Assembly (NCBI GenBank): GCA_032027005.1
Contig: JAVSMW010000015.1
Coordinates: 10,354-42,353 of the forward strand
DNA length: 32,000 nt
Direction: 5' to 3'
Source of the DNA: Thermincola sp.
GTDB lineage: Bacteria; Bacillota; Thermincolia; Thermincolales; UBA2595
The notes below the pieces were generated by a model. That model made no database searches, was not told the origin of the DNA, and worked only from the letters and a program-made list of their open reading frames with translations. Position 1 is the stretch's first letter, and every line of letters begins with the position of its first letter. Made by a program: the position numbers and the translations under genes. Positions 2,773 through 32,000 of this stretch are shown in pieces.

Positions 2773-3846
2773 ATGAAAAATTCAGTGGATTTGAATAATC
2801 TTGATGCCATTCTGGCTAATGACCCCGGCAGGATGCTGGAAGCACTCCGGAATTTACCGGAACAATGCCAGGAAGCCCTGGAAATTGGGCGCAAAGTAAA
2901 TATACCGGCTGGTTATGCCGAAATATCAAATATTGTTGTCACCGGTTTGGGCGGTTCGGCCATCGGCGGAGATTTTCTGCGCTTATTTGTCGGTGACCGC
3001 ATAGGGGTGCCGGTGATTATTAACCGGGATTATACCCTGCCGAAATTTATTGATGCCAAAACTCTGATTTTTACAGTCAGTTACTCAGGGAATACAGAAG
3101 AAACCCTGAGTGCATATGCGGAAGCCAGAGAAAAAGGGGCCAAGATAGTAGCCTTGACAAATGGCGGACAGCTGCGGCAGTTGGCTGAAGCGGACGGGAT
3201 GCCGGTAATTGTGGTACCGGCCGGGATCTCACCCCGGGCAGCCACGGGCTACCTGCTGATCCCAACTTTGGCCGTACTTGAAAGCATAAGTTTGATTAAT
3301 GATCTGGATAATCAAATTTCGGACCTGACTACAGCTTTAAAGACACTAAGAGATAAATTGCAGCCTGAGACACCGGCTGACCGGAACCCGGCCAAGCAGT
3401 TGGCTGGAAGGTTTTACGGCAAGCTGCCTGTGATCTGGGCAGCCAGCGGCAATACTGAGGTGGTGGCTACCAGGTGGAAGGGGCAAATTAACGAAAATGC
3501 CAAAGCACCGGCCTACTGGAATATTTTCCCAGAACTTAATCATAACGAAATAGTTGGCTTTGAGGAGCCTGCAGAATTGCTCAAGAACCTGGAAATCGTA
3601 ATGCTGCGTGATCAGAATGACCACCCGCGGGTTCAGAAGCGGATGGAAGTCAGCCGCGAAATAATTCAAGATGTAGTCAGTGGGGTGACTGAAGTGTGGT
3701 CAGAGGGCGAATCCCGGTTGGCCAGGCTGTTTACCCTCACCTATATCGGAGACTTCACCAGTGTCTACCTCGCCACCTTATACGGCATCGACCCTACTCC
3801 TGTGAAGAACATAGATTTCCTGAAAAACAAACTCGCTCAAGGATAA
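2773..3846 (+). CDS. Bifunctional phosphoglucose/phosphomannose isomerase (SIS-domain PGI/PMI family)
   Basis: SIS motifs VVTGLGGSAIGGD and FTVSYSGNTEETL; C-terminal PGI/PMI-type WKGQINENAKAP...FPELNHNEIVGFE. RBS GAGGGGG lies 7 nt upstream of the ATG. Confidence 0.8.
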   Translation: MKNSVDLNNLDAILANDPGRMLEALRNLPEQCQEALEIGRKVNIPAGYAEISNIVVTGLGGSAIGGDFLRLFVGDRIGVPVIINRDYTLPKFIDAKTLIFTVSYSGNTEETLSAYAEAREKGAKIVALTNGGQLRQLAEADGMPVIVVPAGISPRAATGYLLIPTLAVLESISLINDLDNQISDLTTALKTLRDKLQPETPADRNPAKQLAGRFYGKLPVIWAASGNTEVVATRWKGQINENAKAPAYWNIFPELNHNEIVGFEEPAELLKNLEIVMLRDQNDHPRVQKRMEVSREIIQDVVSGVTEVWSEGESRLARLFTLTYIGDFTSVYLATLYGIDPTPVKNIDFLKNKLAQG

Positions 3847-3876
3847 TTAAAAGAAGCATAGTCGTGATATGGGGAC

Positions 3877-4206
3877 TAAAAAGAAGACGCAGAGATTACA
3901 GAGCACACAGAGGGCGCAGAGGAAACAATATGTACATCAGCTCCGTTACTTCTTTCTGCTCCTCTGAGTCTCTTTCAAAATCCTTACCGAAACGATTTTT
4001 ATAGTTTACGAGATGCTATCATAGTAGGCCCTCGGAAATGGTTAAAGCCGGACAACAAGAAAATATACCACAGAGTGCGCAGAGACTTAGTGCTAAACCA
4101 GAAATTATTTTTTAACAACTGTGGTACAATTACTTCTTTGTAATTGCTTTTAATATCTTTCTCTGCGTCCTTTGCGACCTCCACTTCCTCCGCGTTTTCT
4201 TTTTGG
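3877..4206. repeat. Repeat-rich non-coding block: a tandem NNNNCAGAG 9-mer array plus inverted copies
   Basis: Four tandem 9-mers at 3887-3922 (gacgcagag attacagag cacacagag ggcgcagag). Two more at 4068-4085. Inverted copies ctctgag (3962) and ctctgcgtc (4161). Ends aaaaagaagacgc (3877) and gcgttttcttttt (4192) form a 13-nt inverted repeat with 1 mismatch. Confidence 0.4.
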
Positions 4207-4310
4207 ACCGGATAAAGTGGAGGAAAATAGAAAAAGTCCAATGCGCCAAGCCTTGAGCATAAAGGTAACTTAACTTCCGAGAGACTTAAGTGATTTTGTA
4301 GGAGGAAAAA

Positions 4311-5073: not shown

Positions 5074-6039
5074 ATGATGAAATTGCATGAACTAATTATC
5101 GGAGTTGACCTGGGTGGGACCAATATCAAGGGAGCACTGTTAGATAAACAGGGCAGTATCATTATCAAAGACCAGAAATCCACCCAGGCTAATGCTGGGC
5201 CTGAAGCTGTAGCCAGGAGAATGTCTGAGATGATCTCTTCTCTCGAAGGGATAGCGGCCTCGAAGGGAGCCCAGGTATTGGGTATCGGCATAGGAGTGCC
5301 GGGGCAGCCTAATTCGCGCCTGGGCACAGTTGTATTTGCTCCTAACCTGCGCTGGCGGAACGTACCTCTGGTTAAATACCTGCATGGTGCGACCGGCCTG
5401 CCCATATTTCTGGAAAATGACGCTAATATGGCGGCCTTGGGAGAACAGTGGCTTGGTGCCGGCCGGGGCGCGCTGAACATGGTTATGATCACAATCGGTA
5501 CAGGCATTGGCGGGGGGCTGATTATTAATGGCCGCCTGTACAGTGGGGGCAGCGGCACAGCCGGGGAAATCGGCCATACTGTCATAGACCCCAATGGACC
5601 GTTGTGCAGTTGTGGGCGGAGGGGCTGCCTGGAAACCATGACTTCAGCCACAGCGATGATCAGAATGGCCAGAGAGGCCATAGATTCGGGTGAGGTTTCA
5701 GTGTTAAGCAAGGCGGAAAACCTGGAGGCCAGGGATATAATTAGGGCTGCCCAGGCCGGGGACAAAGTTGCGGACCGGATTATCAATAATGCCGCTTATT
5801 ACCTGGGGCTGGGGCTGGGCAATGTGATAAATCTCCTGAACCCCGATACAATTGTGGTTGGCGGGGGTGTTTCCCGGGCCGGGGAAATTCTCTTTGCTCC
5901 CTTAAGAGCAAATACCGCTCTCCATTCCCTGGAGTCAGCAGGACAGGCAGTCAAAATTGTTCCGGCAGAATTGGGCAATGATGCCGGATGTATTGGGGCG
6001 GCGGCCCTTGTCCGGCAGGAAACCTCCCTAAAAAAGTAG
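5074..6039 (+). CDS. glcK: ROK-family glucokinase
   Basis: ATP-binding IGVDLGGTNIK, ROK signature region and zinc motif CSCGRRGCLE. The start could equally be the adjacent ATG at 5077. Confidence 0.85.
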   Translation: MMKLHELIIGVDLGGTNIKGALLDKQGSIIIKDQKSTQANAGPEAVARRMSEMISSLEGIAASKGAQVLGIGIGVPGQPNSRLGTVVFAPNLRWRNVPLVKYLHGATGLPIFLENDANMAALGEQWLGAGRGALNMVMITIGTGIGGGLIINGRLYSGGSGTAGEIGHTVIDPNGPLCSCGRRGCLETMTSATAMIRMAREAIDSGEVSVLSKAENLEARDIIRAAQAGDKVADRIINNAAYYLGLGLGNVINLLNPDTIVVGGGVSRAGEILFAPLRANTALHSLESAGQAVKIVPAELGNDAGCIGAAALVRQETSLKK

Positions 6040-19127: not shown

Positions 19128-19904
19128 ATGCGCAAACCCATCATCGCGGGGAACTGGAAAATGCATAAAACTGTACAAGAAGCCAAAGCACTAGTCACTG
19201 AACTCAGCGCCGAGCTAAAAGATGTCGGTGATGTTGAAATAGTCGTTTGCCCGCCCTTTACGGCCCTGAATGCTGTGCTTGCCACCGCCCAGGGGACAAA
19301 TGTCGCCGTAGGGGCGCAAAATATGCACTGGGAAGACCAGGGGGCCTATACCGGCGAGGTTTCACCGGTCATGCTCAGGGAAATGGGCTGTAAATATGTA
19401 ATTATCGGCCATTCTGAACGCCGGGAATATTTTGCCGAAACTGACGAAAATGTTAACAAAAAAACCAAAGCCGCCTTCAAACACGGCCTGCTGCCTATTG
19501 TTTGTGTCGGAGAAAAGTTAGACCACAGAGAACAGGGGATCACTGAGCAGATTGTTAAAGCTCAGGTCCAAGGCGGCCTTGCCGGCCTCGAAAAAGATCA
19601 GGTGGCCCAGCTTGTGGTGGCCTATGAGCCAGTTTGGGCCATCGGCACGGGTAAAACAGCTTCTGACGATGACGCCCAACAGGTCATTGGTTTTATCAGG
19701 GGCGTTATCACAGAGATGTACGGTCAGGAACCGGCTGGACAGGTTCGTATTCAGTATGGCGGCAGTGTCAAGCCTGATAACATTTCCGGATTGATGCAGC
19801 AAAAAGACATAGATGGCGCCCTGGTAGGCGGTGCCAGCTTAGATGTCCGGAATTTTGCCGGGATTGTTAAACGTAGTGGAGAGTGGAGAGTGGGGAGTGA
19901 GTAG
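19128..19904 (+). CDS. tpiA: Triosephosphate isomerase
   Basis: IIAGNWKMHKT, IGHSERR, AYEPVWAIGTG and QYGGSVKP motifs. ATG 19128 follows GAGAAGGAG. The last ~10 codons (RSGEWRVGSE) and the stop lie inside repeat copy C. Confidence 0.93.
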   Translation: MRKPIIAGNWKMHKTVQEAKALVTELSAELKDVGDVEIVVCPPFTALNAVLATAQGTNVAVGAQNMHWEDQGAYTGEVSPVMLREMGCKYVIIGHSERREYFAETDENVNKKTKAAFKHGLLPIVCVGEKLDHREQGITEQIVKAQVQGGLAGLEKDQVAQLVVAYEPVWAIGTGKTASDDDAQQVIGFIRGVITEMYGQEPAGQVRIQYGGSVKPDNISGLMQQKDIDGALVGGASLDVRNFAGIVKRSGEWRVGSE

Positions 19905-19979
19905 TGGGTAGAAAAAAGGCGAGTTAGGGAACACTAACCACTGACCGCTCACCACTCATCACTCACCACTCCCCACTAC
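19873..19979. repeat. GTGGNNA heptamer palindromic element, copy C (largest)
   Basis: The left arm 19873-19911 is tandem heptamers (gtggaga gtggaga gtgggga gtgagta gtgggta). The right arm 19934-19979 is the complementary array (taaccac tgaccgc tcaccac tcatcac tcaccac tccccac). The loop is 22 nt. Confidence 0.8.
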
Positions 19980-23204: not shown

Positions 23205-25310
23205 ATGAATTTAAGTGATCCGACTAGTGCTTTGGCTTGGTTATCATTTGGCGCAGGTATCATTTCTCTTATCGTAGCGTTCTTATTCCTTGCCAATGTA
23301 CTAAAGCAAGACCCGGGTACTCCGAGAATGAAGGAATTATCCGACGCTATCTTTGAAGGGGCAATGGCATTTCTAAACCGCCAGTACAAATCTATGGCTC
23401 CGATTGTAGCTATCATTTTCATTATTCTTTTGGCTGTTGGCATGACAAACCCTGCCTTGTTAATGGAAGTAAAAGATGAGAGTATTGATTTGACAAGTAT
23501 GTCAACTAAACTGGCCCTGCCTATCTCATTCCTGGTAGGTGCAGTTGCATCAGCAATTGCCGGATACTGTGGGATGGTTAGTACAACTAAATCAAATGCC
23601 CGTACAACCCACGCTGCCCGTAAAGGTCTGCAAAGAGCCCTGACCATTGCCTTCCGCGGTGGTGCTGTTATGGGTCTGTCAGTTGCAGGTCTCGGTTTGG
23701 CCGGTGTATCAGGACTTTATTTATTGTTTGGAAATCCGGCAGTTATCAACAGTTTCGCCTTTGGAGCCAGCGCCGTAGCTCTGTTTGCGCGGATTGGCGG
23801 TGGTATTTATACCAAAGCTGCTGACGTAGGTGCTGACCTCGTTGGTAAAGTTGAAGCCGGAATCCCCGAAGATGACCCGCGGAACCCCGCTGTTATCGCT
23901 GACAACGTAGGTGATAACGTTGGTGACACCGCCGGTATGGGTGCTGACTTGTTTGAGTCCTATGCTGCAACTGCTATTGCTGCCATGGTTATTGGTAACA
24001 AGGTTCTTGGCATTGAGGGTGTACTTTTCCCACTGTTGATCGGTGCTATAGGTATTATCGCTTCTATCATCAGTACTGCTTTTGTACGTATGAGCAGCGA
24101 AGACTCCAACCCACAGACTGCATTGAATATGGGTCTGTATGGAACCAACATTCTCACAGCCATAGCAGGTTACTTCCTGGCGAAAGCTCTGTTTGGTGAT
24201 GTAGCCATGGGTATTTTCATCGGTATTGTTATGGGTCTTGTAACCAATATCGCTATTGGCTATATTACTGAGTTATATACTTCTTATAATTATCGTCCGG
24301 CTCAGGAAATTGCTGAGGCGTCCCAGACCGGTCCGGCCACTAACATCATCAAGGGTCTGGCTGTTGGTCTGAAGTCTACAGTTTATCCGGTGCTGGTTAT
24401 CGTTATAGCTATCTGGGTGTCTTATTTCTTTGCTGAAAATGCCGGAGAACACCTAGGAATCTATGGTATCGCCATGGCTGCCATGGGGATGCTCTCAACT
24501 GCAGGTATGGTTGTAGCCATCGACTCCTTCGGTCCGGTAGCTGACAACGCCGGTGGTATTGCTGAAATGGCAGAACTGGGACCGGAAGTTCGGAAGAACA
24601 CCGACCGCCTGGATGCTGTTGGTAACACAACTGCTGCAGTGGCCAAAGGTTTCGCTATCGGTTCTGCAGCTTTAACAGCTCTGGCTCTGTTTACCGCCTA
24701 TGCTGAGTCTGCAGGTTTAGCTGAAGCAGGCATCAACATTCTGGAGCCCATTGTTATTATCGGTCTGTTTATCGGTGCAACTGTACCCTTCCTTGTAGCA
24801 TCATTTGCTATGGAGGCTGTTGGTAAAGCTGCTTTTGAAATGATTGACGAAGTACGCCGTCAGTTCCGTGAGATTCCCGGCCTGATGGAAGGTAAAGCCA
24901 AGCCCGACTATGCCCGCTGTGTTGACATCAGTACCCGGGCTGCTATCAAGCAAATGGTTGCTCCCGGTCTCGTGGCAATTGGTACCCCTGTAGTTGTTGG
25001 CTTCCTCCTGGGACCTCTGGCTCTCGGTGCTGTGCTGGCCGGTGGTACCGCTTCCGGTGTGTTACTGGCCCTCTTCATGGCTAACGCCGGTGGTGCCTGG
25101 GATAACGCTAAGAAATATATTGAGACCGGCAAATTAGGCGGCAAAGGCAGCGAAGTTCACAAAGCGGCAGTTACCGGTGACACCGTAGGTGACCCCTTCA
25201 AGGATACAGCCGGTCCTGCCATGAACCCGCTGATCAAGGTTATGGGGACTATCTCCCTGATCTTGGCTCCGATTGTGGCGAAGGTGTACTTGTTCAAAGA
25301 TCTGATCTAA
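23205..25310 (+). CDS. hppA: Membrane-integral ion-translocating pyrophosphatase, K+-dependent type
   Basis: [29 protein letters not shown] and [17 protein letters not shown] motifs. [10 protein letters not shown] has Ala rather than Lys at the position known to distinguish K+-dependent enzymes. Confidence 0.93.
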
Positions 25311-25313
25311 TTT

Positions 25314-25360
25314 GCAAATAGATTGAGGGTGCAGAGGAATCTGCACCCTCAATTATTTGC
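25314..25360. terminator. Long hairpin after hppA, potentially a bidirectional terminator
   Basis: 20-bp stem with one bulge. The GC-rich upper part is attgagggtgcag (25322-25334) / ctgcaccctcaat (25341-25353). The A/T-rich lower stem can act as a U-tract on either strand. Confidence 0.75.
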
Positions 25361-25380
25361 GATGCATGCTATGTGCATGC

Positions 25381-25494
25381 AGGTGAAAATGCCCTCTGGC
25401 TTCGTTGCGCTGGCCGACCCAATCCTCAACGTACAACTAGTACGCCTCCGGTTGGGTCGGCCAGTGCGCCTTGCCAGAGGGCATTTTCACACCT
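25381..25494 (-). repeat. Conserved-apex long hairpin, copy 1 (candidate structured RNA; strand inferred from G-U pairs)
   Basis: Arms: 17-bp perfect gtgaaaatgccctctgg / ccagagggcattttcac, plus 16-bp gcgctggccgacccaa / ttgggtcggccag(tg)cgc. The apex 25421-25453 is the reverse complement of the apex of copy 2 (31101-31135). Confidence 0.8.
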
Positions 25495-25552
25495 CTGGGT
25501 CGGAAATTTGGCCAATAATATTTATGCAAGATTCTTTGGTAACTCAGCTAAA

Positions 25553-25981: not shown

Positions 25982-26371
25982 TTGTGGTTTCATGTTGATC
26001 CCTCAAGTGGAGTGCCGATATATTTACAGATACTTAACCAGGTGAAACGAGCGGCTGCTTCAGGCATGCTCAAACCCGGAGACCAGATGCCTTCGGTGCG
26101 GGAACTGGCTACTGAACTCACCGTAAACCCCAATACCATTGCCAAAGCTTATCGGGAACTGGAACGCGACGGGGTGATTAAGACAGTACGCGGTGTAGGC
26201 ACCTTCGTGGCTGAAACAGAAGTTAAAATTGTCCATGAGGAACGGGTCAAGGTTATTTATAATGCCATTGACAAAGTACTTGTCGAAGCCCATTACCTGG
26301 GATTTAACGAAAATGAGGTCAGACAGTTTATAGATGATCGCATCAGGGAATGGAAGGAGAGGAAAAAGTGA
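25982..26371 (+). CDS. GntR-family transcriptional regulator, YtrA subfamily
   Basis: IYLQILNQVKRAAASGMLKPGDQMPSVRELATELTVNPNTIAKAYRELERDGVI is a GntR wHTH, and the short C-terminal helical domain is typical of YtrA. TTG start lies 8 nt after GAGGAGG. Confidence 0.85.
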   Translation: MWFHVDPSSGVPIYLQILNQVKRAAASGMLKPGDQMPSVRELATELTVNPNTIAKAYRELERDGVIKTVRGVGTFVAETEVKIVHEERVKVIYNAIDKVLVEAHYLGFNENEVRQFIDDRIREWKERKK

Positions 26372-26529
26372 TGATGGAAATTGCTATAAAAACCAGCGAG
26401 TTAACCAAAAGCTATGCCGTCATTCAGGCTATTAATGGTCTGAATCTGCAGGTTAACAAGGGAAGTATATACGGTTTCCTGGGCCGGAATGGGGCAGGCA
26501 AAACTACTACTATCGGTAATGTTGTTTGA
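26371..26529 (+). pseudogene. ABC transporter ATP-binding protein, N-terminal 52-aa fragment ending just after Walker A
   Basis: My translation is MMEIAIKTSELTKSYAVIQAINGLNLQVNKGSIYGFLGRNGAGKTTTIGNVV followed by TGA at 26527-26529. The start overlaps the regulator stop. Q-loop, signature and Walker B are all absent. Confidence 0.75.
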
Positions 26530-26535
26530 GAAAAA

Positions 26536-26751
26536 ATGAAAAGTGCGTTAGCTTCCATCTTTACCGTGTTTTTGCTGCAAATATCATCTTGGCTGCCGTT
26601 CTCAAAAAAATTCTCAATTTTTTATCATATGTCAGGGCCGGGGATTTATTCCGGACATGGCTTCCCGTATATAACCCTGGTGGTTTTGGCAGCAATATCG
26701 GCACCACTTTACTATCTTGGCAGAACGAGATTTGTGAGCAGGGACTTTTAA
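26536..26751 (+). pseudogene. Probable C-terminal remnant of the cognate ABC-2 type permease
   Basis: Same reading frame as the ATPase fragment. Hydrophobic ALASIFTVFLLQISSWL and YITLVVLAAISAPLYYL end in a basic/acidic tail (GRTRFVSRDF), as in ABC-2 permease C-termini. No RBS. Confidence 0.4.
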
Positions 26752-26810
26752 AACCATGGCTGGAATGGAAGAGTCAGGTTTGTTTACCGTTAATGAAAAG
26801 GAGGGGCATT

Positions 26811-27692
26811 ATGACAATCTATAAACCGACACCAGGTAAAGGATTTTTTTGGAGCGTTATTTTTATGATATTTGTGACCGGTGCTGTGGCTGCGCCTCTG
26901 ATAATCAGTACAGTCAGCGGCACGCCGCGGCTGGAGTTCCAGCTTATCATGGGTGGGGTCCTGGTATTGGTCCTGGGGATTTTTGGATATCTGGCCTGGA
27001 CGGCAAAAAATCTCACGTATGAGATTAATAAGGAAAACATGACAATTAAATGGGCTTTTAACAGGAAGACTATACCACTGACCAGTATCAAAGGCATTAA
27101 CCGGGTGGTTGGCAATAGTGCCACCAAAGTAGTAGGGGCCAGTCTGCCGGGTTTGCATATCGGGTCCTTCACCAGTCCAACGGGAAAAGGCTCAATAAAT
27201 CTTTTTGCCACCAGGCTATGGGGAGAAATCCTGCTTATCCGGACCAAATGGGAATTAATCGGAATTACCCCGGAAAACCCCGAAGAGTACCTGGAAGAAT
27301 TGTCTGCCAAAGTACCAGGCCTTAACTCTGACGGCCTGGCCGGTTTAGATCATAATCCCGCACCTTTTTCGCCCTGGCAGGCAAAACACTTCCTGGCCGT
27401 GATGGGCTTAACGGCAGCGACCATAATTGGTACAGGAATATACCTCTTGAAAACTATTCCAGCCCTGCCGGCAAAAATCCCAATGCACTATGATTTTTAC
27501 GGTCAGGTCAACCGCTATGGCTCTCCCAGTGAATTATGGGTAATTTATGGGATTGGGGTTGGCATAGTGGCTTTCATGATAATCCTCATGAGCACAGTTG
27601 TCAGAAACAACCGGACATCAGCATATTTGATGGCTTATACGTCGCTATTCATTGCCATCTTGTTTTCGGTAATCAGTATAGCTATTGGATAA
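26811..27692 (+). CDS. Membrane protein with a bacterial PH-like domain and a C-terminal DUF1648/SdpI-like region
   Basis: ATG 26811 follows AAAGGAGGGG. Two TM helices are followed by YEINKENMTIKWAFNRKTIPLTSIKGI (bPH-like). The C-terminal IPMHYDFYGQVNRYGS plus TM helices resembles DUF1648. Confidence 0.6.
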   Translation: MTIYKPTPGKGFFWSVIFMIFVTGAVAAPLIISTVSGTPRLEFQLIMGGVLVLVLGIFGYLAWTAKNLTYEINKENMTIKWAFNRKTIPLTSIKGINRVVGNSATKVVGASLPGLHIGSFTSPTGKGSINLFATRLWGEILLIRTKWELIGITPENPEEYLEELSAKVPGLNSDGLAGLDHNPAPFSPWQAKHFLAVMGLTAATIIGTGIYLLKTIPALPAKIPMHYDFYGQVNRYGSPSELWVIYGIGVGIVAFMIILMSTVVRNNRTSAYLMAYTSLFIAILFSVISIAIG

Positions 27693-30544: not shown

Positions 30545-31009
30545 ATGGCTGACAGTATTAAGGTAATAACTGAAAACAGAAAAGCCCGGCACGATTTTCA
30601 TATTGAAGAAACTTTTGAAGCCGGGATTGTTCTGGCCGGTACGGAAGTGAAATCTCTGCGGGCCGGCAAAGCCAATTTAAAAGACAGTTTTGCCAGGGTT
30701 GATCATGGGGAGATATTTCTTTACAATGCCCATATCAGTCCTTATGAGCAGGGGAACAGGTTTAACCACGATCCTCTAAGGACCCGCAAGCTGTTAATGC
30801 ATGCCTTTGAAATACGCAAGCTCATTGGCAAAGTTCAGGAGAAAGGCCTTACTTTGGTGCCGCTAAAGATGTATTTCAAAAACGGCAAAGCCAAAGTCCA
30901 GTTAGCCCTGGCCAAAGGGAAAAAGCTCTATGACAAGCGAGACGACATGGCTGCCCGGGATGCGAAACGAGAAATGGAGAAGGCATTTCGGGAGAGGCAG
31001 AAAATGTAG
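30545..31009 (+). CDS. smpB: SsrA-binding protein SmpB
   Basis: [29 protein letters not shown] and RTRKLL motifs. Adjacent to tmRNA. Confidence 0.95.
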
Positions 31010-31058
31010 CTCTGAGAATGATGAATGACTTTCATTCTTACTTTAAAAGTTTTTGCTA

Positions 31059-31179
31059 GGCTGTTCAAAAGCGAGCATAGCTAGGAGCCATTTGTGTCGG
31101 AACCGGAGGCGTACTGGGTATGTACGTCGAGGATTACGGCACAAATGGCGACAACGCTAGGCGACGCTTTTCAACAGCC
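31059..31179 (+). repeat. Conserved-apex long hairpin, copy 2, between smpB and ssrA
   Basis: Outer stem 31059-31073 / 31165-31179 (14 of 15 bp). Inner stem 31087-31096 / 31140-31149 (10 bp perfect). Apex 31101-31135 is aaccggaggcgtactgggtatgtacgtcgaggatt. It ends 8 nt before the tmRNA 5' end. Confidence 0.8.
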
Positions 31180-31187
31180 GTAAACAT

Positions 31188-31537
31188 GGGGGTGTAATGG
31201 TTTCGACGGGGGAAGAATAAACACAATAAGCGAGCCGGGATCCCACAGGCCCGTTAAACAGTGGAACTTAAATTAAACGCTAAAAACGATTTAGCTTACG
31301 CAGCTTAATTGCTGCTCACCTCTCTGCTTCTGTGCTCTGTGTGAGGCAGATGAGGTCATTTAACAGAGCTGGCTGACCCCCAATTCTCGGAGGGGTGACG
31401 CGAGATTTATCGAGATAGTGAGCCGGTAGCCTGTCGGTAGGCGATTGGTGAGCGAAATTTAAAATACTCGACTACGCTCGTAGAAGGTTGTGTGGGTTCT
31501 CTTTCGGACGCGGGTTCGACACCCGCCACCTCCACCA
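31188..31537 (+). ncRNA. ssrA: tmRNA (SsrA)
   Basis: 5' GGGGGUGUAAUGGUUUCGACGGGG and 3' GGACGCGGGUUCGACACCCGCCACCUCCACCA. The acceptor stem GGGGGUG/CACCUCC has the G3-U wobble. Tag reading frame 31279-31308: gct aaa aac gat tta gct tac gca gct taa = AKNDLAYAA. Confidence 0.93.
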
Positions 31538-31610
31538 AATAATCTACCATCTATTGATAAAATTCAGTTTATTGTTGGTGGTTTTTAAATAGTCAATAAA
31601 CCCAGTATTT

Positions 31611-31646
31611 AAGCCGCTTTCGCAGGTTTTGCGAGGCGGCTTTTTT
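31611..31646 (+). terminator. Probable terminator of the ssrA transcript
   Basis: Stem aagccgctttcgc / gcgaggcggctt (imperfect), followed by TTTTTT (31641-31646). Confidence 0.6.
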
Positions 31647-31690
31647 CGTTTGCTGAAGAATTTTTGGGCGGAGTGTTTTAATAACACTGG

Positions 31691-31897
31691 TTGAATTGGT
31701 ATCAATTTGATGAAGACGCACCTGTGGAGCAAATTCTTGGTATACTCGAAACCGTCACCATCACTGATCTTGTAGTCATACGGGACAATAACCTGCTTAA
31801 CGATAGCGTGACGGCTACTGACAATGTAGTAGTAACAGGGGCAAACAACGGGGCATATTTAGCAGACACGGCTAAGGCAGACTTCTGCAGTGCTTAG
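31691..31897 (+). CDS. Hypothetical protein (68 aa), uncertain
   Basis: TTG start without a well-spaced RBS. Its stop is followed by AGGAAGGAG and a further ORF, which suggests a coupled pair. No recognisable motifs. Confidence 0.3.
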   Translation: MNWYQFDEDAPVEQILGILETVTITDLVVIRDNNLLNDSVTATDNVVVTGANNGAYLADTAKADFCSA

Positions 31898-31913
31898 GAA
31901 GGAGTGGGCGAGC

Positions 31914-32000
31914 TTGATTAATGAAAAAATTGGCATTGTTGGCCGGGTAAAGGTTAGGACATACCCGGCGCACCTTGAACAAAAAATTATACAGCTTTTT
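31914..32000 (+). CDS. Hypothetical protein, 5' part only (runs off the window)
   Basis: TTG 31914 lies 9 nt after AGGAAGGAG. The frame is open to the window end (LINEKIGIVGRVKVRTYPAHLEQKIIQLF). Confidence 0.3.
   Translation, partial: MINEKIGIVGRVKVRTYPAHLEQKIIQLF

Follow-up and report, generated by a model that had tools for sequence, protein, structure and literature searches.

The closest described counterparts of the repeat analyzed here are the REP/REPIN elements (BIMEs, mobilized by RAYT), which are high-copy, extragenic, noncoding palindromes lying between the genes of operons in both orientations. They keep conserved mismatches within the hairpin, their arms evolve in concert, most copies have no linked gene, and they leave no target duplication; the same can be said of our repeat, the last point being true of its main subfamily. 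Both are also landing sites for IS110-family elements: PMC12288879 describes such elements inserting in REPs, and one copy of the repeat contains an IS110-family insertion sequence (PF01548 plus PF02371), the only IS seen. Several features set the repeat apart. PMC3733652 and PMC6006769 define the REP tag as GTAG or CGTC at the hairpin foot, whereas the repeat carries neither tag and has a YTA(R) flank. A REPIN is made of two REPs of 20 to 40 nt, whereas the repeat is one hairpin of ~125 nt with three conserved blocks; its core is common to about ten phyla, whereas REP families are species or genus specific; and one of its subfamilies shows TNA duplications.

Other families share part of this description. 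ERIC and Correia/NEMIS elements are imperfect palindromes of ~100 to 150 bp that occupy transcribed intergenic regions in both orientations and have TA-associated flanks; they are confined to a family or genus, carry TA duplications on both sides, and have centers that are not conserved across phyla. Like them, the repeat has size variants produced by internal insertions (167 to 196 nt), in which conserved inserts replace the apical cap. Miniature inverted-repeat elements (MITEs) derived from IS5 resemble it in their terminal inverted repeats, lack of coding capacity, YTAR/TNA-type flank and TNA duplication (the last in the Desulfobacterota subfamily of the repeat). They differ from it in that the main subfamily has TA on one side and no duplication, in that no parent IS was found in the loci examined, and in that the interior of the repeat is more conserved across phyla than its ends. 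As in MITEs generally, the repeat is small (MITEs measure less than ~600 bp), noncoding and dispersed, has conserved terminal inverted repeats, and is polymorphic for insertion between related genomes; no autonomous IS or transposase with matching ends was found in about 0.8 Mb of loci. Integron attC sites, too, are imperfect palindromes, recognized in folded single-stranded form by their conserved unpaired bases, and the stop codon of the upstream ORF often overlaps the start of the site. Identity with attC was rejected: the repeat lacks a RYYYAAC/GTTRRRY core, its flanks are TAG more often than TAA, its apex does not vary as that of attC does, and neither one-directional cassette arrays nor a neighboring integrase was seen.

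The kind of element is known. What is unusual is an interior that, over about ten phyla, is better conserved than the ends, conserved modules that are purine rich on one strand only, and one end that falls exactly on TAG/TAA stops. We conclude that the repeat is probably a dispersed, noncoding palindrome of ~125 nt, mobile or recently mobile and of the REP/REPIN-MITE kind, and not a gene.

Two copies in the Thermincola window

The window, by which we mean the whole 32,000-nt stretch of Thermincola sp. DNA that was analyzed, holds exactly two copies of the repeat in a scan with the covariance model R1. Copy 1 spans 25377..25498 with its G-rich, better-folding strand on the - strand (80.1 bits, E = 1.3e-15, model positions 1-129), and copy 2 spans 31056..31184 with the G-rich strand in the + sense (76.7 bits, E = 7.5e-15), so that the two lie in opposite orientations within the same transcriptional context. 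Read from the sequence, the apical module of copy 1 (25421..25453, - strand) is AACC-GGAG-GCGTAC / cap / GTACGT-TGAGG-ATT, a P3 stem with a purine-rich internal loop containing tandem G.A; the reverse complement of 25421-25453 is aaccggaggcgtactagttgtacgttgaggatt. The corresponding module of copy 2 (31101..31135, + strand), identified from the sequence and a match to the apex pattern, is aaccggaggcgtactgggtatgtacgtcgaggatt. The earlier note on this DNA had given the coordinates and sequences of both apices exactly, and its suggestion that two hairpins with a near-identical apical module belong to one family is borne out: the pattern CCGGAGGCGTAC-N3-12-GTACGYYGAGG has two matches in the window against 0/100 shuffles, and both hairpins are R1 matches.

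The arms were also correctly described as self-complementary. In copy 1 the outer pair (25383-25400/25473-25490) is 18 nt long and 100% complementary and the inner pair (25407-25422/25452-25467) is 94% complementary, with a minimum free energy of ~ -82 kcal/mol and z = -10.7 (+ strand) and -10.1 (- strand) against shuffled controls. The arms of copy 2 are 31059-31073/31165-31179 and 31087-31114/31122-31149, and its fold gives z = -7.7 and -7.0 against the same kind of control. Both copies share a lower internal loop in the R1 alignment, 5'-(A/T)AGG ... AACG(A/C)-3'. Its 5' side is CAAGG at 25469..25473 and its 3' side AACGAAG at 25400..25406 in copy 1 (- strand), as placed by the near-invariant AGG and A-A-C-G columns of alignments A1 and A4 and by the R1 alignment; in copy 2 (+ strand) the alignment and R1 place the two sides at 31081..31085 (CTAGG) and 31153..31160 (AACGCTAG). 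The same R1 alignment shows end motifs common to the two copies, (C)AGG..TG.T(C/G)AAAA / TTTTCA..C. In copy 2 the left, or TCAAAA, end is GGCTGTTCAAAAG (31059..31071, + strand), which fits the Nitrospira end consensus AGG(A/C)TG(C/T)TCAAAAAG, and the right, or TGAAAA, end is CTTTTCAACAGCC (31167..31179, + strand; reverse complement GGCTGTTGAAAAG); set against each other, the two ends give a conserved C.C mismatch.

With gene identities taken from the same contig in public assemblies, the order of genes is enolase, an H+-pyrophosphatase (23205-25310), a terminator-like hairpin, copy 1, a GntR/ABC/bPH_5 cluster, secG, RNase R, smpB (30545-31009), copy 2, tmRNA (31188-31537) and then a prophage, all of these genes being on the + strand. 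Neither copy abuts a stop codon; they lie 67 and 47 nt downstream of one. The tmRNA gene is the sole Rfam match in the window, and its mature 5' end is 3 nt from the end of copy 2. No sigma-70-like site was found between copy 2 and tmRNA, and any read-through from smpB to ssrA must transcribe copy 2. Copy 1 is positioned behind the terminator of the pyrophosphatase gene, a perfect 14-bp, terminator-like stem at 25322-25353 directly after it. A - strand transcript from copy 1 had been proposed to end at this hairpin. The hairpin exists. The one promoter-like match (sigma-70-like, TTACCA-16-TATTAT, 25542 to 25515 on the - strand), which immediately precedes the G-rich strand of copy 1, is among three found against 1.1 expected by chance and is not conserved in the sister species (locus L131).

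Anatomy and covariation of the repeat

On the G-rich strand the repeat has conserved, slightly asymmetric ends, (C)AGG(A/C)TG(C/T)TCAAAA ... TTTTCAGCA(G/T)CC(TG), and its basal stem contains a fixed C.C mismatch where TCAAAA at one end faces TGAAAA at the other. Inward from the basal stem come stem P1 and a conserved asymmetric internal loop, 5'-(N)AGG / AACG(A/C)-3', followed by stem P2, which covaries freely and often has extra tandem G.A mismatches. Above P2 lie a conserved purine-rich loop, C-GGAG-G / Y-GAGG-A, and the apex, a conserved stem of 5 to 7 bp (GCGTAC/GTACGY) with a variable cap. In a subfamily missing one G, the loop is a clean 2x2 with tandem G.A. A K-turn was rejected as a reading of the apex, the loop being, from its sequence, 3x2 or symmetric with tandem G.A and having no 3-nt bulge. 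What we take to be a likeness of GUACG..GAGGA..CCGGAG to the 23S sarcin-ricin loop sequence conflicts with the pairing found in the repeat, and a mini-ORF in the 3' arm of some Nitrospira copies (ATG...TAA) was discarded because its start codon is not conserved.

An alignment of 68 sequences with a 44-pair structure shows that the helices are maintained by paired change. Paired cells make up 89.5%, against about 38% (33 to 41%) when partners are slid by 1 to 3 columns; 33 of the 44 pairs change on both sides, every helix covaries, and 0/500 shuffles reach any of the observed measures. The P3 stem covaries as well in copies outside the search pattern (CGTAG/CTACG, TGTAT/ATACA). That the arms of the two window copies differ and still pair, as had been claimed, is strengthened by this covariation, but the arms are not unrelated, since they share the lower loop and the end motifs. 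Mismatches are unequally distributed between the strands: the G-rich strand has 118 G.T against 50 A.C and 180 purine-purine against 79 pyrimidine-pyrimidine mismatches, which marks it as the better-folding strand. The asymmetry of G.U and A.C next to the GCGTAC/GTACGY stem, from which the earlier note took the G-rich strand to be a functional RNA, is real, and the mismatches do favor that strand as the folded one, while the evidence weighed below speaks against an sRNA gene.

Conservation is distributed differently within Nitrospira and between phyla. Among unselected Nitrospira copies, identity is highest of all blocks in the terminal ~17 nt (0.88-0.91), followed by the apex (0.84-0.85), the lower-loop modules (0.83) and P2 (0.52-0.58), and the end motifs are recognizable between Bacillota (window copy 2) and Nitrospirota; the view that this was not a MITE since its ends were not conserved thus finds no support. 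Between phyla, the apex and lower loop have held where the arms and ends have diverged completely, although collecting loci by their apex inflates the apparent invariance of the apex, and the 21 specified apex bases are all intact in only a minority of unselected copies. The internal modules are near-constant from Clostridia of 27% GC to Eisenbacteria of 75% GC, over which range the arms change completely, a constancy that a plain DDE-type MITE leaves unexplained. The outermost stem bases differ among copies yet stay complementary inside each copy.

Distribution of the family and evidence for mobility

A scan of one genome per species with GGAGGCGTAC-N3-14-GTACGYYGAGG found the exact apex pattern at no fewer than 120 genome loci, spread over about ten phyla. 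Among the matches listed, most are from Nitrospira/Nitrospiraceae, and the other hosts are Acidobacteriota, Planctomycetota, Desulfobacterota, Myxococcota, Rokubacteria/Methylomirabilota, Eisenbacteria, Gemmatimonadota, Spirochaetia and Bacillota, the last including Peptococcaceae and low-GC gut Clostridia. Seven matches without hairpin context (L004, L009, L019, L058, L072, L096, L120) were excluded as chance. The exact pattern also occurs on four viral contigs. One of these, L126, has genes for capsid and portal and is a genuine phage contig; R1 detects two copies in it, between genes. R1 found 131 copies in 699 kb of fetched loci, ~31 of them outside the exact apex pattern, with five copies in one locus of 6.8 kb (L088), four in another (L016) and three in tandem in a third (L074). 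The repeat itself, at ~125 nt, is without coding capacity.

No Rfam family accounts for these copies. Searched at gathering and permissive thresholds, Rfam 15 gave no credible match to copy 1 (E <= 10) or to a canonical Nitrospira copy or the 196-nt variant (E <= 1). Copy 2 and the Nitrospira consensus had no blastn match among 72,556 plasmids, a full-text search for the apex sequence returned unrelated primers only, and a limited literature search (Nitrospira repeats, REP, MITE, and MITE with stop codon and IS5) did not find the repeat family described.

The surroundings of the copies are as varied as would befit a mobile element. All-against-all clustering of mechanically called ORFs in 120 loci found no recurrent neighbor gene apart from widespread paralogous families, among them ABC transporters, histidine kinases and TPR proteins, and 150 flanking ORFs match 181 different Pfam families. 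Related genomes differ in occupancy: one intergenic site is filled in two Nitrospira loci (L043, L030) and empty in a third (L084), and the site between ureB and ureC is filled in L014 and empty in L092. Both window sites are filled in the sister species L131, whose SmpB is 95% identical, but in Phosphitispora sp. TUW77 (SmpB 92%) and HGW-Firmicutes-14 (SmpB 93%) they are empty. The spacer between smpB and ssrA is ~25 nt in HGW-Firmicutes-14 (L130), and L129 has an unrelated spacer there. If the repeat is mobile, both window insertions would date to the common ancestor of the source organism and the L131 species. No usable clean empty site was available for recent Nitrospira insertions, the spacers being too diverged.

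Target duplications depend on the subfamily. The Desulfobacterota subfamily, which has ends of the form T[A/T]CC..TTTGCATTCAAG and is without the A/T tract, shows perfect 3-bp direct repeats in five of eight copies (TAA, TAA, TGA, TTA, TTA) and a 3-bp TNA repeat with one mismatch in the remaining three. In the Nitrospira subfamily no duplication was seen and TA is present on one side only; a TA duplication of the IS630/Tc1-like kind was rejected for this type, its 5' flank not being TA. The two window copies have no clear duplication. This difference suggests that the subfamilies may move by different chemistries. The same ~20-nt ends recur in three or more further Nitrospira repeat families whose interiors are unrelated, as expected if one enzyme recognizes those ends. 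Taken with the dispersal in many copies, filled and empty sites and duplications in one subfamily go far toward overturning the earlier view that this is no MITE.

Comparison of the window with L131 shows how single copies have changed in place. Copy 2 has undergone two compensatory double changes, GGCTG/CAGCC to GACTG/CAGTC and TGTGTCGG/ACGGCACA to TGTGCCGG/ACGGCGCA, together with a G-to-C change in the apical loop. The L131 orthologue of copy 1 has lost P3 and the apical-loop sequence and has four uncompensated changes in one arm. With one copy compensated and the other decayed, individual loci show no consistent purifying selection. The decay of copy 1 fits selection on the element rather than the locus, and the compensatory changes of copy 2 could reflect selection on structure in place. 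Template-switch correction of quasipalindromes can also produce compensatory change in inverted repeats, so covariation is no proof of RNA function. By the same token, the mismatched modules persist against a perfecting force, which calls for a function.

Orientation and the stop-codon junction

Copies do not keep one orientation toward the genes around them. Where the flanking ORFs are co-directional, the G-rich strand is antisense to them in 35 cases and sense in 13, with a further 12 copies between divergent genes and 11 between convergent genes; orientation is mixed within one operon (L002) as it is within the window. Read on the C-rich strand as ...NNN TAG|CAGGATGCTGAAAAAG, the stop codon of the incoming ORF occupies exactly the last three model positions in 34 of the 74 copies with an incoming ORF of at least 100 codons, and any neighboring stop offset accounts for at most five copies. 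These 34 stops are TAG in 22 cases, TAA in 11 and TGA in one, against 10 TAG, 14 TAA and 16 TGA among non-junction stops, so the junction rule is specific for TA. The ORFs at the junction are real genes with natural C termini (UreC, PurH, a TonB-dependent receptor, GrpE, L10), and the junction also occurs in Clostridia, Rokubacteria and Desulfobacterota.

At this junction the third base of the stop is paired to the element's far end, so that TA is the flank and R the first base of the element. The opposite flank is not TA. On the C-rich strand the commonest flanking tetranucleotides are TTAG, CTAA and CTAG, which fit YTAR, the target motif of IS5 (PMC5009759). We infer that insertion is directed to TA and followed by purifying selection, the survivors being those that fall where a stop codon meets the following ribosome-binding site (RBS) or in spacers. 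Such survival would also account for the orientation bias.

Mechanism and alternative explanations

If the repeat is a mobile palindrome, its copies would depend for their movement on an enzyme that acts in trans from a gene at another site of the genome. RAYT is single copy per genome, and no RAYT gene was seen among the neighbors in the 8-kb loci around copies. The conserved modules are not complementary between the arms and are purine rich on one strand, which suggests that they are read in a folded single strand. We favor a single-stranded DNA hairpin formed during transposition as this folded form, in the manner of the ends of REP/RAYT or IS200/IS605 elements. For the Nitrospira and window type we lean toward a single-strand hairpin mechanism (HUH type), on the grounds of the one-sided TA, the lack of duplication in the main subfamily, the conserved mismatches including that of the terminal stem, the strand asymmetry, and outermost stem bases that are variable between copies and complementary within each. 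A DDE/IS5-like mechanism is favored in its turn by the TNA duplications of one subfamily, the YTAR-like flank, and ends common to other families. Taken to its end, that alternative makes the repeat an ordinary cut-and-paste MITE of the IS5-family kind, in which the interior is conserved because the family is young and has spread horizontally and no single-strand reading occurs. We regard this as unlikely. The 3-bp TNA duplications, the flank that is usually YTAR-like on one side (TTAG, CTAA, CTAG) and the shared ends suit it, as do ends that presumably resemble IS5-family inverted repeats, but it sits poorly with a main subfamily that makes no duplication, with arms and ends that diverge between phyla where apex and lower loop do not (the opposite of neutral decay), with strand-asymmetric modules that are noncomplementary between arms, and with outermost stem bases that vary from copy to copy and remain complementary within each.

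A different explanation is that the repeat acts in cis as an RNA module of the mRNA, for example, as a barrier to 3' exonucleases, a site of processing by RNase III or RNase E, a terminator or attenuator working in both directions, or an insulator that separates stop codon and RBS, its loops binding a host RNA-binding protein or the anti-Shine-Dalgarno (one strand has GGAGG/GAGG and the other CCUCC). Repeats of the ERIC, REP and Correia kinds have been reported to act as cis RNA modules, and such a role is compatible with mobility, the element then being the vehicle. The covariation of all helices, the two compensatory changes in place in copy 2, the tandem G.A and excess of G.U that mark the G-rich strand, the many copies exactly between a stop codon and the next gene, and A5/T5 tracts beside GC-rich stems that resemble a two-way terminator would all be explained. 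Against it, the G-rich strand is sense in only 13/48 co-directional contexts, 12 copies lie between divergent genes, the A/T tract is missing in the Desulfobacterota subfamily, and the copy 1 orthologue decays uncompensated; a cis-acting module is possible, if somewhat doubtful. By analogy with REP, ERIC and Correia elements, effects of the hairpin at the RNA level in operon transcripts seem likely all the same, but they do not explain the orientation statistics. Far less probable, and in our view close to being dismissed, is that copy 1 is an independent sRNA gene on the - strand that ends at the 25322-25353 hairpin, the family being a structured noncoding RNA and not mobile. The sigma-70-like match upstream of its G-rich strand, the hairpin downstream and the conserved structure would suit such a gene, yet the promoter match is one of three where 1.1 would arise by chance and is not kept in L131, no conservation of the sequence upstream of the element is seen across at least 100 copies, copy 2 and most family members stand in other orientations and contexts, and the filled and empty sites, target duplications in one subfamily and lack of an Rfam family all point elsewhere.

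Beyond the mobile palindrome that we prefer, a bolder reading can be put forward, tentatively and with considerable doubt. The two conserved, noncomplementary, purine-rich modules (the apical loop with its stem, and the lower loop) might form a protein-recognition fold in the single strand, common to about ten phyla and carried on a hairpin transposon that homes to the TA of stop codons. The repeat would then be either a new and widespread class of substrate for single-strand transposition (HUH type or other), served by a conserved enzyme, or a mobile RNA module whose insertion puts a regulatory hairpin exactly at the stop-codon/RBS junction of operons.

Implications

If our reading holds, the repeat is an abundant interspersed element that seems not to have been catalogued, and by extrapolation Nitrospira genomes may hold hundreds of copies each. 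In practice, it would yield false candidates for structured RNAs and break assemblies, and its insertion polymorphisms would be useful for strain typing. In terms of mechanism, the conserved interior and the landing on TAG/TAA would point to a conserved partner protein and a testable targeting rule. Each copy amounts to a hairpin of -60 to -90 kcal/mol between operon genes, such as those for urease, the liv transporter, phage structural proteins and smpB-ssrA, and hairpins in these positions should affect mRNA processing, polarity and translational coupling.

Genomic surroundings of the repeat in the window

The gene cluster between secG and copy 1, the hairpin repeat copy behind the H+-pyrophosphatase gene, comprises GntR-like, ABC-fragment and bPH_5-DUF1648 genes (25982-27692). 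In all three relatives compared, namely the sister species (L131), Phosphitispora sp. TUW77 (L129) and HGW-Firmicutes-14 (L130), this cluster is missing and the pyrophosphatase gene is followed directly by secG. The cluster adjoining copy 1 is therefore a lineage-specific insertion. A terminator-like hairpin 3' of the H+-pyrophosphatase gene (25322-25353) is kept in the sister species (L131:4710-4745) with a compensatory change from GCAGA/TCTGC to GCGGA/TCCGC, and is not present in the two more distant relatives.

Copy 2 lies between smpB and the tmRNA gene, ssrA. The corresponding spacer is ~25 nt in HGW-Firmicutes-14 and ~200 nt in Phosphitispora sp. TUW77 (L129:8469-8669), where the sequence is unrelated and contains repeated AACTA/TAACT-like words. 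Directly 3' of the tmRNA gene, a prophage-like region encoding a holin, an amidase and two large serine recombinases runs from 31540 to 32000 and onward beyond the window (L121:11147-20465), and the 3' end of the tmRNA gene seems to serve as an integration site. Elsewhere in the window, a long hairpin at 19866-19979 is unrelated to the repeat: its arms (19889-19906 and 19960-19977) are 83% complementary; short purine-rich repeats of the GTGGRGA type make up one arm, and their complement makes up the other.

Variants, chimeras and probable mobility of the repeat

Long variants of 167-196 nt occur at seven loci (L086:4928-5123, L041:3266-3461, L099:1610-1805, L012:703-897, L032:112-286, L007:1535-1707 and L048:6831-6997). 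In place of the apical cap, these carry one of two conserved inserts, either of ~65 nt, starting GGGGCGCACGGTGCGACGAATAAGGAGCACC, or of ~45 nt, with TTCTCACCCGCCC, CCCGAGCTG and CAGCTC in succession; a 196-nt variant had no match in Rfam. The ~20-nt ends, GCAGGATGCT[C/G]AAAAAG, are common to the hairpin repeat and other Nitrospira repeat families, despite which the interiors of types B (e.g., L007:6733, L054:5144, L065:857), C (e.g., L066:7903, L086:3227, L091:1971) and D (e.g., L086:2278, L091:530) are unrelated to it. Chimeric copies were also found, with one arm from the hairpin family and the other from type B.

At locus L002, two copies in opposite orientations (1-80 and 839-964) flank both sides of the ATPase gene in a branched-chain amino-acid ABC transporter operon; thus, one transcription unit tolerates the repeat in both orientations.

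Another copy, in L013, is interrupted by an IS110-family insertion sequence (3081-4240) whose transposase ORF (3096-4082, minus strand) carries PF01548 and PF02371. The insertion point falls between GACCGGAG and CGACTG, and two similar 16-nt stretches, CGAGTGAAGACCGGAG and CGAGTCGAAACCGGAG, lie on either side of the element. Its position inside the copy and these similar flanks suggest that the conserved apex region is a landing site for IS110 elements, as REPs, short bacterial palindromic repeats, also are (PMC12288879).

Two intergenic copies (747-874 and 5426-5553) lie on the phage contig L126 (IMGVR_UViG_3300037424_002862), whose portal and capsid genes are P22-like. Phage carriage is a possible route for the repeat to spread between hosts.
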